Source of the DNA: a virus
Direction: 5' to 3' (one strand)
Length of the DNA stretch: 9,574 nt
UHGV virus genome: UHGV-1960391
The stretch's first letter is position 1; each line of letters opens with the position of its first letter. Shown here in pieces: positions 1-9,238 of the stretch. A model generated the notes under the pieces. It was not told where the DNA came from. It did no database searches and saw only the letters and a list, made by a program, of their open reading frames with translations. A program made the translations under genes and the position numbers.

Positions 1-786
1 GGAGTTCAGGGAGGAACCGCCGGAAGTGCTGCCACCGGAGGAACCGCCGGAAGTGCTGCCACCGGATGAACCGCCGGAAGTGCTGCCACCGGATGAACCG
101 CCAGAAGTGCTACCACCGGATGAACCGCCAGAAGTGCTGCCACCGGACGAACCGCCGGAATTATCACCACCGTCAGTATTACCGTTATTCCCTTTATCAT
201 CAGTATCTCCGCTATCACCTTTATCTTCTGTATCTTCTTTATCAGAATAAGCCGGATCAACAGTTACAGGTTTCCAGGTAGCGGTACAAGAATCTGTACC
301 ATCGGGACAAATAATAGCAACACCCGTTGCCTCATAAATGCATCCATGAATGGTGACATATTTATTCCCTTTATCATCCTTATAAACACCTGACAAAGAA
401 ACATTACTAAGCTCAGGACGGGATAAACAAACCTCTTCCGTGGGTTTAGCTGAATACGAAGCACCAAAATATTGACCGTAAAAGCTATCCTTACACTGAG
501 AATAAACCTTAACACCATCCTCAAAATGGTAAGACTTATAAGAGATCCAGTTACCTGTAACCAGTAAAAATGGCATACCCAAAAGATGATTAGTATCGCT
601 GTAAGACGTAGTACAATAAAACGTATCACCTGAGCAGGATGCATATCCAGTAGTACAGGGTGGAGCTACACCGGCCCTTGCAACACGGGTACCGGAACCT
701 GCATCACCAAGAAATTCTGTCGTTGAAGCTGCATATGCAGAATTAAATGAAAAAACAGCAACAAGGAAAATAAATATATATGCCAA
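1..786 (-). CDS. Minor coat/adsorption protein g3p (pIII)-like, N-terminal 262 codons only; C-terminal part lies beyond the window start
   Basis: Hand translation of the minus strand from TTG at 786..784 (preceded by GGGGGTGAG, in-frame TGA just upstream) is open to position 1. It gives a signal-peptide-like N-terminus (LAYIFIFLVAVFSFNSAYA), a Cys-rich domain, a segment VYKDDKGNKYVTIHGCIYEATGVAIICPDGTDSCTATWKP resembling the Ff g3p N1 domain as I recall it (VWKDDKTLDRYANYEGCLWNATGVVVCTGDETQCYGTWVP), then an acidic stretch and (GGSSGGSTS)n linker. Not in the ORF track because there is no in-window stop. The TTG start is unverified. Confidence 0.7.
   Translation of the reverse strand, partial: MAYIFIFLVAVFSFNSAYAASTTEFLGDAGSGTRVARAGVAPPCTTGYASCSGDTFYCTTSYSDTNHLLGMPFLLVTGNWISYKSYHFEDGVKVYSQCKDSFYGQYFGASYSAKPTEEVCLSRPELSNVSLSGVYKDDKGNKYVTIHGCIYEATGVAIICPDGTDSCTATWKPVTVDPAYSDKEDTEDKGDSGDTDDKGNNGNTDGGDNSGGSSGGSTSGGSSGGSTSGGSSGGSTSGGSSGGSTSGGSSGGSTSGGSSLNS
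14..170. repeat. About 5.5 copies of a 27-bp tandem repeat (GAACCGCCGGAAGTGCTGCCACCGGAT) encoding the Gly/Ser linker of the left g3p
   Basis: Directly visible near-identical 27-bp units at 14-40, 41-67, 68-94, 95-121, 122-148, with a partial sixth unit; the repeat likely continues beyond the window start. Confidence 0.85.
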
Positions 787-802
787 GACTCACCCCCTGA
801 AT

Positions 803-833
803 AAGCAAAAAAAGCGCCCCGCAGGGCGCTGTT
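803..833 (-). terminator. Rho-independent terminator downstream of the pVIII-like gene (minus strand)
   Basis: Inverted repeat AGCGCCC-cgca-GGGCGCT (813-830); on the minus strand the stem-loop is followed by a run of about 8 T (complement of the A-run at 804-812). Position matches the strong terminator after gene VIII in Ff phages. Confidence 0.6.
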
Positions 834-845
834 GTTAAATAACTA

Positions 846-1106
<261 letters not shown>

Positions 1107-1113
1107 TTAAAAA

Positions 1114-1284
1114 TTAATTAACAACATCGCTGAACATCCGGCAGACCAGAGTGAAAATAACACCAAGGCCAAAACCAAGAAGCCAGCAGACAATCCAGAC
1201 ATACAGAACGGCCCAGTAAAGCTCCCCGTCCTGTACACCAGAATTTATTGCGGATAAAACACCGCTGAAATCGAATTCAGTCAT
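1114..1284 (-). CDS. Small hydrophobic protein, candidate minor virion protein (pVII/pIX position)
   Basis: Track ORF 1114..1317; I favour the internal ATG at 1284 (MTEFDFSG...WAVLYVWIVCWLLGFGLGVIFTLVCRMF), which overlaps the upstream stop as ATGACTGA. One predicted TM helix; function assigned by position only. Confidence 0.4.
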   Translation of the reverse strand: MTEFDFSGVLSAINSGVQDGELYWAVLYVWIVCWLLGFGLGVIFTLVCRMFSDVVN

Positions 1285-1417
1285 AATAACGCTGAACAGT
1301 AATGATTTGTGAGTCACAGGCGCGAATCAGTTTTATTCCGATGCCAAAACCTGAAGAGAATAAAATCATTGCAGGCGCAGCGAATAAAACAAAGTTAAGA
1401 AAATCAGCGTCAGACAT
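1277..1417 (-). CDS. Small hydrophobic protein, candidate minor virion protein (pVII/pIX position)
   Basis: Track ORF 1277..1471; I favour the internal ATG at 1417 immediately after the upstream stop (MSDADFLNFVLFAAPAMILFSSGFGIGIKLIR...). Hydrophobic core with GIGIK motif; function by position only. Confidence 0.35.
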   Translation of the reverse strand: MSDADFLNFVLFAAPAMILFSSGFGIGIKLIRACDSQIITVQRYYD

Positions 1418-1421
1418 ATCA

Positions 1422-1847
1422 TCAGCCTTTTTCTTTACCTGCGGGCAGTGCACCCAGTGGCTGACCGTCAAAACGTTTCATGGAGCCGGAAATAAAACGA
1501 TACCAGACGCCATGACGTTCAGAGCCTGTTGCCCATGAATTCACATCCACCGTGAGATAAACAGGTTTACCCTTCAGGTCAGGACATGAATTAAAAAATT
1601 TAAAATCCTCCTCAGTACAGGAAAAGCGCTCATGCTCCTCACGACGGACTTTTAATTTTTTGTCCTCATACGGATAGGCAATAACAATGGCATATTTGGG
1701 TTTAGCCTCAGGGTTATAATGAGTACCACCGGGCTTTAACTCCTCATCATTTATAACAGTGGCGTGAATAAAATATCCCGCCATTGTCATACCTGCGGTA
1801 AAACCATCAGGGGAAGGAAACGGAAAGCTGTCGTAAATTTGATTCAT
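1422..1847 (-). CDS. Hypothetical 141-aa protein in the gene V position (possible ssDNA-binding protein; unproven)
   Basis: Complete ORF with good RBS (GAGGAG about 8 nt upstream of ATG at 1847), directly downstream of Rep. No motif I can recognise; larger than Ff gV (87 aa). Confidence 0.6.
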   Translation of the reverse strand: MNQIYDSFPFPSPDGFTAGMTMAGYFIHATVINDEELKPGGTHYNPEAKPKYAIVIAYPYEDKKLKVRREEHERFSCTEEDFKFFNSCPDLKGKPVYLTVDVNSWATGSERHGVWYRFISGSMKRFDGQPLGALPAGKEKG

Positions 1848-1877
1848 AAATCAGACTCCTCAATGTTAAAAATTCAG

Positions 1878-3970
<2,093 letters not shown>

Positions 3971-3983
3971 TGGAGATGGGCGA

Positions 3984-4166
3984 ATGAAAAGAAAGGCAAT
4001 AGCAATTACAGAATCAACATATCTGGATATTACTAGAATAGCCCTTGAGATAAGCCAAAAAACAGGGCAAATAGTTACATGGTCGGAAGTTGTACACTTT
4101 ATGATAAAAAACTACTTAAACGACGCAAAACAAGACATGATCCACCAAAGAAACCAAAAAAAATAA
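3984..4166 (+). CDS. Ribbon-helix-helix (CopG/Arc/MetJ-like) DNA-binding protein, candidate phage repressor/regulator
   Basis: 60-aa ORF with SD GGAG about 8 nt upstream. Sequence MKRKAIAITESTYLDITRIALEISQKTGQIVTWSEVVHFMIKNYL fits the RHH pattern (basic N-term, alternating beta-strand AIAIT, helix A, G-x turn, helix B). Divergent from Rep, the arrangement of rstR/rstA-like control modules. Confidence 0.55.
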   Translation: MKRKAIAITESTYLDITRIALEISQKTGQIVTWSEVVHFMIKNYLNDAKQDMIHQRNQKK

Positions 4167-4208
4167 CATCGTAGTTACCTATAGATACGAAGATTGCTAA
4201 GAAGCAAT

Positions 4209-4364
4209 ATGCAGACAACCAGTGACTTAATTCTTGACCTGCTGATAAAGCATTTTGTTGTGGATAGCATTACAGGCATGACGATGTTCGGCCTGATAAC
4301 GCTTGTTCTTCCGTTGGTGATGACCATACACGACAAAATGAACAGGCGCACAGACTCCTTTTAA
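4209..4364 (+). CDS. Possible small membrane protein (51 aa), below the ORF-track threshold
   Basis: Hand-translated: MQTTSDLILDLLIKHFVVDSITGMTMFGLITLVLPLVMTIHDKMNRRTDSF*; weak RBS (AAGAAG); hydrophobic C-terminal half; ends 5 bp before hairpin A. Confidence 0.25.
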   Translation: MQTTSDLILDLLIKHFVVDSITGMTMFGLITLVLPLVMTIHDKMNRRTDSF

Positions 4365-4369
4365 GATTC

Positions 4370-4463
4370 AGTGCGCACAATGACGTTATGTGTAAAAAGG
4401 CCGCTGCGGTGGAAAGTATCGCAGCGGCCTTTTCAACATAACGCGTGTCACATTATGCGCACT
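4370..4463. other. 94-bp imperfect palindrome A with dif-like XerC/XerD-arm motifs at both ends (candidate folded attP / origin hairpin)
   Basis: AGTGCGCACAA-TGACG-TTATGTGTAAA ... GGCCGCTGCG-loop-CGCAGCGGCC ... TTTCAACATAA-CGCGTGTCACA-TTATGCGCACT. Outer arms resemble E. coli dif (GGTGCGCATAA-TGTATA-TTATGTTAAAT, recalled), with asymmetric central regions (5 nt vs 11 nt). Confidence 0.5.
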
Positions 4464-4554
4464 GTTATAGCAGTTATCGATAAGACAAAAAGATACCCCA
4501 TCACCATAAGAAAAATACATGAGAAAAAAACAAATAAATCATCACGTTAAAAGC

Positions 4555-4648
4555 AGTGCGTACAAGAGCGTTATGTGTAAATCGGGCGCGGCGATCGCCA
4601 TTTTCGCCGCACCCGATTCAACATAACGGCATATACCTTATACGCACT
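4555..4648. other. 94-bp imperfect palindrome B, paralogue of A with compensatory substitutions (candidate folded attP / origin hairpin)
   Basis: AGTGCGTACAA-GAGCG-TTATGTGTAAA ... ATCGGGCGCGGCGA-loop-TCGCCGCACCCGAT ... TTCAACATAA-CGGCATATACC-TTATACGCACT. Same length and same end motifs as A; central stem sequence differs entirely but remains self-complementary. Confidence 0.5.
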
Positions 4649-4918
4649 GCAATGAGATGCGGTAAAAACAGACTGAAAGCCACATCGAATCCTCACCAGA
4701 ACGCTGTAAATCATCAATTCCATCAACATGCCACATCAATGCATGGACGACTCACGCCTTGCGTCGTTCGTCTCGCTGACTGCCCGTTTAAAGGCGGTCT
4801 GGCAGGCGGCGCGTTGCGCTGTCTCCTGCTGCTCTGTCATCTCTCACTGGCTTCGGCGGGCTGACAGCTGCGTCACATGAAACATCATCATGCCGCCTTC
4901 CATGCCGCTGGCGCGGCA

Positions 4919-7236
<2,318 letters not shown>

Positions 7237-7244
7237 TCACCCGT

Positions 7245-7535
<291 letters not shown>

Positions 7536-7548
7536 TCACCACCTGATA

Positions 7549-9238
<1,690 letters not shown>

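Follow-up and report, generated by a model that had tools for sequence, protein, structure and literature searches.

A probable gene III of an E. coli filamentous prophage, with an Ff/IKe-type N1 domain behind a candidate host-range domain

The minus-strand reading frame at the beginning of the window (by which we mean the whole stretch of 9,574 nucleotides analysed here) is in all probability the 5' two-thirds of gene III of a temperate filamentous phage, the gene whose product, g3p or pIII, sits at the virion tip and serves adsorption and entry. This phage would lie as a prophage in a chromosome of the E. coli type, with a filamentous prophage of another kind as its neighbour, and we put the probability of this reading, gene and setting taken jointly, at roughly 80%. 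The gene class itself is ordinary, being that of inovirus gene III, and the order of the domains is already known from IKe and I2-2. What appears to be new, as judged from sequence comparison and a predicted structure, is a first domain that is restricted to E. coli and has no fold relative, together with the fact that a prophage which integrates at dif, and has a Rep closest to those of VFJ, fs2, and CTXphi, carries an entry module of the Ff/IKe kind.

Minus-strand translation of 840-1 reads TGA, V, and L (TTG) and runs on as 262 sense codons from the TTG at 786-784 to base 1, with no stop codon on the way. The reverse complement and the frame used in the initial annotation, which had been made by reading the DNA alone, were therefore correct. 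The peptide quoted there, VYKDDKGNKYVTIHGCIYEATGVAIICPDGTDSCTATWKP, matches the retranslation exactly, but it occupies residues 134-173 (nt 268-387) and had been placed slightly off, at about residues 133-172 and nt 270-390. The features of this gene and of its surroundings are collected in table 1.

Table 1. Features of the g3p gene, its product, and the neighbouring prophage genes, in positions of the window
Feature	Position	Strand	Remarks
g3p (attachment / minor coat protein) gene, 5' part	1..786	-	belongs to the downstream prophage; open at the window end
TTG start codon	784..786	-	sole in-frame start past the TGA two codons upstream
Shine-Dalgarno-like GGGGGTGAG	789..797	-	GGGGG core ends 6 nt ahead of the start codon
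Intrinsic-terminator-like hairpin AGCGCCCTGCGGGGCGCT and T-run	806..830	-	between g8p stop and g3p start; kept in relatives
Signal peptide, residues 1-19 (MAYIFIFLVAVFSFNSAYA; AYA↓A cleavage motif), predicted	730..786	-	hydrophobic core, then A-x-A
N-terminal domain, residues 20-113; putative primary-receptor-binding	448..729	-	four invariant Cys: 44, 51, 58, 98
N1-type domain, residues 114-178	253..447	-	Cys 120/149/160/167; homology to Ff/IF1/IKe N1
Acidic Asp/Lys/Gly spacer (PAYSDKEDTEDKGDSGDTDDKGNNGNTDGGDNSGG)	161..252	-	includes a degenerate 27-bp repeat, 173-235
Gly/Ser linker start, 27-bp repeat, (GGSSGGSTS)n	10..160	-	5.6 copies, 95% matches, cut by the window end
80-aa major coat protein	1088-846	-	second gene group
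G5P-like protein	1847-1422	-	second gene group
GPA-family replication protein, Rep (PF05840; P2 gene A-type)	3890-1878	-	second gene group
dif-like site, 11-nt central region	4461-4429	-	AGTGCGCATAA-TGTGACACGCG-TTATGTTGAAA; found by eye
dif-like site, 11-nt central region	4657-4625	-	AGTGCGTATAA-GGTATATGCCG-TTATGTTGAAT; found by eye
Secretin	6178-4919	-	first (upstream) gene group
Zot-type g1p	7233-6175	-	first (upstream) gene group
DUF2523 g6p-like gene	7532-7245	-	first (upstream) gene group
598-aa ORF in g3p position of the upstream prophage	9345-7549	-	repeat 7913-8165: 12 bp, 21 copies, (Gly-Thr/Ser)n

The assignment is carried by residues 114-178, which we regard, on the strength of sequence similarity and of the predicted fold, as a genuine Ff/IKe-type g3p N1 domain. 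When the first 202 residues were compared with every PDB sequence by phmmer, the significant matches were all g3p entries, namely the TolA-binding domain of IKe (4eo1, E=5e-11, over residues 114-176), fd N1 (1fgp, 1.3e-8, the fd/M13 set of 1fgp, 2g3p, 1g3p, and 1tol ranging from 1e-8 to 1e-6), and IF1 N1 (2x9a, 9e-5). The Pfam family PF05357 (Phage_Coat_A) matches residues 110-158 with 30.8 bits, its gathering score being 20.8. A tblastn search with the same 202 residues against a phage collection of 50,697 records (2.3 Gb) found gene III of Ff, IKe, I2-2, and Erwinia PEar phages only, with E=1e-4 to 2e-6, and there was no match to a Vibrio or Yersinia phage among these records. Matches to PHROG attachment-protein families cover residues 92-246 only, and the homologous stretch lies at profile positions about 132-259 of phrog_4150 and phrog_22527.

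The resemblance to N1 that had been noticed from the Cys, ATGV, and TW positions thus proves significant on alignment to M13, fd, and IKe g3p. The ATGV and TW-P (TW(K/V)P) motifs are common to this domain and Ff N1, and identity to the solved TolA binders is 39-41% (41% to M13 N1). The pairs in fd are Cys7-Cys36 and Cys46-Cys53, and the four cysteines of the domain align with these positions and are invariant in 11 relatives. Given that fd N1 has two disulfides (PMC10424213), the corresponding pairing is probable in the present g3p. An AlphaFold model superposes on 4eo1 at 1.3 A, and its predicted fold is that of N1, with TM 0.83-0.85 to IF1 N1; this AF2 model was built from an alignment of only 11 sequences, and one built from a 4-sequence alignment (pLDDT 38.9) was discarded.

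The gene is intact in relatives, where it is encoded between g8p and g6p/Zot as a protein of 528 aa (L001:12315-13901) or 537 aa (L006:3685-5298). The order of genes in the complete relatives is g8p, terminator, g3p ORF, g6p, Zot, and secretin. In CP027550 the 528-aa ORF has a TTG start and a Gly/Ser linker of ~200 residues, its C-terminal domain lacks Cys and has a hydrophobic helix at its end, and the genes that come next encode a g6p-like protein of 120 aa and Zot. An IMG/VR genome of 8,294 bp has a single such g3p, of 537 aa. The full-length gene, whose recovery had been proposed as a check, is thus available through these relatives, the window copy itself still ending at base 1. Position among the coat and g6p/g1p genes, a signal peptide, a Gly-rich linker, and a C-terminal hydrophobic anchor are all as in inovirus gene III, the anchor helix being read from the full-length relatives, beyond the window. 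The proposal that the gene is g3p is therefore borne out by the N1 homology and by the location between g8p and g6p in relatives, and we take the identity and the position of the gene as established.

Ahead of the N1-type domain are 113 residues, made up of the 19-residue signal peptide and a 94-residue domain. IKe and M13 g3p have signal peptides at the equivalent position; the one here has an n-region without a basic residue, and cleavage is predicted at AYA↓A. The domain that follows had been described as a Cys-rich domain of roughly 110 residues that is absent from Ff. Its extent and its absence from Ff hold, but "Cys-rich" overstates the case, as there are 4 Cys in 94 residues; these four are kept in all 11 aligned relatives. 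The domain has no match in Pfam, PHROGs, or NCBIfam and none in a profile search of PDB sequences, and comparison of its predicted fold gave no relative. Homology to the first domain of IKe, as in an IKe/I2-2-type g3p, was not found either, the hhalign probability being 0.08% with no match in fold.

When 1.84 billion representative proteins were searched exhaustively with phmmer, three true clusters emerged, with identities of 93%, 65%, and 42%, all of them g3p proteins with the same two-domain order. Two further matches (P0009 and P0010) were set aside as spurious, being repeat proteins matched over ~40 residues. A word-based search from the 42% relative added a third lineage, and IMG/VR contributed six true loci; the IMG/VR locus L012 was rejected because its match lies on the strand opposite to a 2143-aa ORF. 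All members that bear organism names are E. coli. A scan of GTDB species representatives, one genome per species, with the first-domain alignment returned no relatives, and among complete E. coli genomes the variant in the window is found, over at least 80% of the query, in 4 of 5426. The first domain is limited to about four E. coli prophage lineages, and no relatives in sequence or fold were found elsewhere.

The initial annotation also stated that the domain order differs. This is true with respect to Ff, where N1 comes first, but not with respect to IKe and I2-2, which have the order seen here. In the translation of IKe gene III the TolA-binding domain (the 4eo1 sequence) occupies precursor residues 133-194, as against 114-178 in the present protein. 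The first domain of IKe g3p is an N-pilus-binding domain. The architecture of the present protein, as far as its sequence can be aligned, is IKe-like with a new first domain.

Comparison among the relatives shows that the first domain is hypervariable and is exchanged by recombination. Between A and C, identity is 26% in the first domain, 60% in N1, and 50% in the C domain; between B and C it is 34% in the first domain and 88% in N1, B being partial and its C domain left out. Across lineages, no other part of the protein is as conserved as the N1-type domain, which has 55-88% identity and a dN/dS of about 0.3. Synonymous divergence does not agree between the two domains: for L014 versus L008, the first domain is saturated in dS and N1 has 0.16, and for the window versus L005 the values are 0.78 and 0.21, respectively. 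This discordance argues for recombinational cassette exchange of the first domain. Pairs at moderate distance have a dN/dS of 0.26-0.35 in each of the two domains, which indicates purifying selection on a functional coding sequence. Near-identical pairs show a first-domain dN/dS of 1.65-1.87 and 0 replacements in N1, the substitution counts behind these values being small.

Based on its position, its variability, and the analogy with other g3p proteins, the first domain most likely binds the primary receptor and acts as a host-range module. A different role has been considered, in which the domain is a regulatory cap that masks the TolA site of the N1-type domain, as fd N2 does, while the primary receptor is recognised elsewhere or is not needed. 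We consider this unlikely, since a domain with a regulatory function alone should hardly vary and be exchanged more than any other part of the protein, although fd N1 and N2 do interact (PMC10424213) and a pTM of 0.74 for the two-domain model gives a hint that the two are placed in a defined way relative to each other. Moreover, the two roles are not exclusive, as fd N2 fulfils both. Building on the receptor-binding role, we advance a more specific proposal that is possible but on balance doubtful: residues 20-113 would form a new receptor-binding fold for a chromosomally encoded E. coli surface structure, not a conjugative pilus, and would be exchanged as a cassette before a constant TolA-binding domain among dif-integrating E. 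coli inoviruses. If this is true, these temperate filamentous phages would possess a natural plug-in host-range system, in which a CTXphi/fs2-like backbone carries an entry module of the Ff type.

Homology also suggests that residues 114-178 bind TolA. The YGT motif, which is implicated in TolA binding by fd N1 (PMC10424213), is YGT in fd/M13 and reads TAT here and SSA in IKe; it is thus not universal within the N1 family. With TAT in its place, binding to TolA could be weak or lacking altogether, and one may ask whether the domain has kept its fold and lost TolA binding, serving as a spacer or binding another envelope protein. Together with the altered motif, the limited identity to the solved TolA binders would be compatible with such a loss. 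We nevertheless find it quite improbable: IKe carries SSA, yet 4eo1 was deposited as a TolA-binding domain, and the conservation and low dN/dS of the N1-type domain are what one would expect of a module whose partner is a conserved protein of the host. We therefore favor retention of TolA binding.

The TTG start is well supported by comparison of gene copies. Between the upstream stop and Met71 the only ATG, GTG, or TTG codon is this TTG, so that the initial reading of a sole TTG start behind a G-rich Shine-Dalgarno sequence stands, and TTG is found at the homologous position in 14 of 14 gene copies, from 11 loci and three lineages. The sequence upstream of it differs in the diverged lineages (AGGAG, 8 nt, and TTG in L013; GGGGGT, 6 nt, and TTG in L014), and an upstream ATG of L008 is ATA in L013. 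The hairpin of the terminator-like element proper lies at 830-813. Gene III of IKe and of M13 starts with GTG rather than TTG, and in IKe a stem-loop is annotated between genes VIII and III, which is the layout seen here. The GTG starts and the IKe stem-loop suggest that a weak start downstream of a terminator is a habit of the family. Expression of g3p is probably kept low, as in Ff and IKe, by a terminator after the major coat gene and a non-ATG start, TTG, behind a good Shine-Dalgarno sequence.

The 27-bp repeat of the linker had been taken for an in-frame variable tract, and the relatives agree: their intact linkers range from 87 to 205 residues, and the 528-aa and 537-aa proteins are exactly one 9-residue unit apart. 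In the tandem prophage copies of L002 (NZ_CP070229) g3p has 469 and 488 aa (10315-11724 and 18702-20168), which shows that its length changes between copies within one array. Window bases 1-9 (GGAGTTCAG, read as ...LNS on the minus strand) deviate from the repeat and from all close relatives, whose alignment to the window ends at base 10. The end of the contig inside the repeat is probably an assembly break. Most database members are likewise "partial" proteins that end within the repeat, and relatives are already present in databases as "hypothetical protein", with PF05357 precomputed.

The repeat also disturbs gene calling. Where the 528-aa ORF of NZ_CP027550 lies intact (L001 12525-13901), RefSeq/PGAP annotates three separate features: a fragment called a "pseudogene"; WP_062865521.1, a spurious product of 187 aa read from the other strand of the repeat; and a "hypothetical protein" for the C-terminal part. 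The window ORFs at 26-250 (+) and 66-281 (+) are repeat artefacts of the same kind. We attribute this fragmentation to the repeat and the TTG start, which would explain a recurring annotation failure that leaves "hypothetical" fragments and contig ends in public genomes. That the prophage is defective and its g3p gene a remnant in decay, with no functional product, is highly improbable, for while the pseudogene call, the truncated window copy, and the rarity of the variant in complete E. coli genomes would agree with decay, the call is a product of annotation, the ORF is intact at 528-537 aa in both tandem copies of CP027550 and in the IMG/VR genome, dN/dS is well below one (see above), the start codon, Shine-Dalgarno sequence, and terminator are kept, and the tandem copies suggest recent activity.

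The long genes of the window are all on the minus strand and fall into two groups with about 1 kb of non-coding DNA between them (table 1); in the second group small membrane ORFs lie between the G5P-like gene and the major coat gene. The gene had been called a second g3p. The window does contain another gene in g3p position, but it belongs to a different tandem prophage and not to the same phage. A duplicate g3p within one phage was rejected, since the 598-aa ORF is unrelated in sequence and the complete relative has a single g3p. The 598-aa ORF has no Pfam or NCBIfam match, and its only PHROG matches are phrog_7187 and phrog_3942 (C-terminus; both of unknown function).

The two dif-like sites are in direct orientation, and a GC-rich hairpin and the word TTTACACATAACG come after each of them. 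A search of the window for the exact E. coli dif sequence, with up to 3 mismatches allowed, found none; in the dif-like sites the central region is longer. The 99.4% identity to the prophage of CP027550 sets in at window 4464, exactly at the second dif-like site, and this switch in similarity marks the junction of two different filamentous prophages. In E. coli 2015C-4136CT1 (CP027550) two tandem 8.25-kb prophage copies lie beside hipA, in the dif region, and are 98.5-99.4% identical to window 10-4464. Window 1-1100 gave no blastn match in the phage collection.

Some further observations concern the neighbouring prophage and the Rep region. The upstream prophage type occurs singly in strain E200139, with a similar Rep module, and is also found single beside an IS110 transposase, away from dif. 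Comparison of window 1429-8481 with L015 (NZ_CM128604) shows that the two prophage types have a Rep/G5P module in common, at ~92% identity, and that their structural and adsorption modules are wholly different. A 60-aa ORF (phrog_2503, of unknown function) at 3984-4166 (+) is divergent from the Rep gene, and region 3892-3980 between the two contains repeated GTTAACA/TTTAACA words (tgttaacagtttaaca ... gtgttaacctgttaacactttaaca). This region and the 60-aa ORF look like a repressor/operator switch of the RstR type.

We propose the following route of entry. A Sec signal peptide would direct the export of g3p, and a C-terminal domain beyond the window, with its hydrophobic anchor, would hold the protein in the virion cap beside g6p. 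The 94-residue first domain, with two putative disulfides, would bind the primary receptor and set the host range. In a second entry step the 65-residue N1-type domain would dock on the C-terminal domain of periplasmic TolA. The acidic spacer and the long flexible (GGSSGGSTS)n linker after it would provide reach, the linker growing and shrinking in frame.

The gene described here bears on how the temperate filamentous phages that integrate at dif in pathogenic E. coli and Yersinia recognise and enter their hosts. It shows one such group, in E. coli, with an Ff/IKe TolA-binding module, so that Tol-dependent entry becomes directly testable in this group. Its small, cassette-like first domain is a candidate host-range determinant and also a candidate for retargeting M13-type vectors through a swap of receptor-binding domains (PMC12477597).

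Among known systems, the closest parallel in domain organization is the g3p of IKe and I2-2 (Lineavirus), where, as here, an unrelated first domain is followed by a TolA-binding domain. In Ff and IF1, on the other hand, N1 is first and the pilus-binding N2 comes after it, whereas in the present protein an additional domain precedes N1 and no N2 homologue is found. A Gly/Ser repeat linker follows in Ff and IF1 g3p, and so it does in the protein described here. The likeness does not extend to the C domain: that of IKe g3p and that of the full-length relative gave a BLASTP E of 0.08, with 22% identity and many gaps, which falls short of recognisable homology. The C domain of fd has a Cys354-Cys371 pair (PMC10424213), which is missing from that of the full-length relative. 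The mismatches in the first domain and the C domain indicate that the protein is only partly an Ff/IKe-type g3p.

The backbone differs as well, being episomal with pII in IKe and Ff and that of a prophage at a dif-like site with a GPA-type Rep here. The gene order g8p-g3p-g6p-g1p-g4p is common to Ff and the present phage group. The nearest phage relatives of Rep are the RstA-like proteins of VFJ, fs2, and CTXphi, at 29% identity. In YpfPhi, TolQRA has been proposed as the entry route and the primary receptor was not found (PMC4266046). CTXphi, fs2, and VFJ, together with the YpfPhi/CUS-1 group, share with the phage described here a Zot-type g1p, tandem arrays in the dif region beside hipA, and dif-like junction sites.
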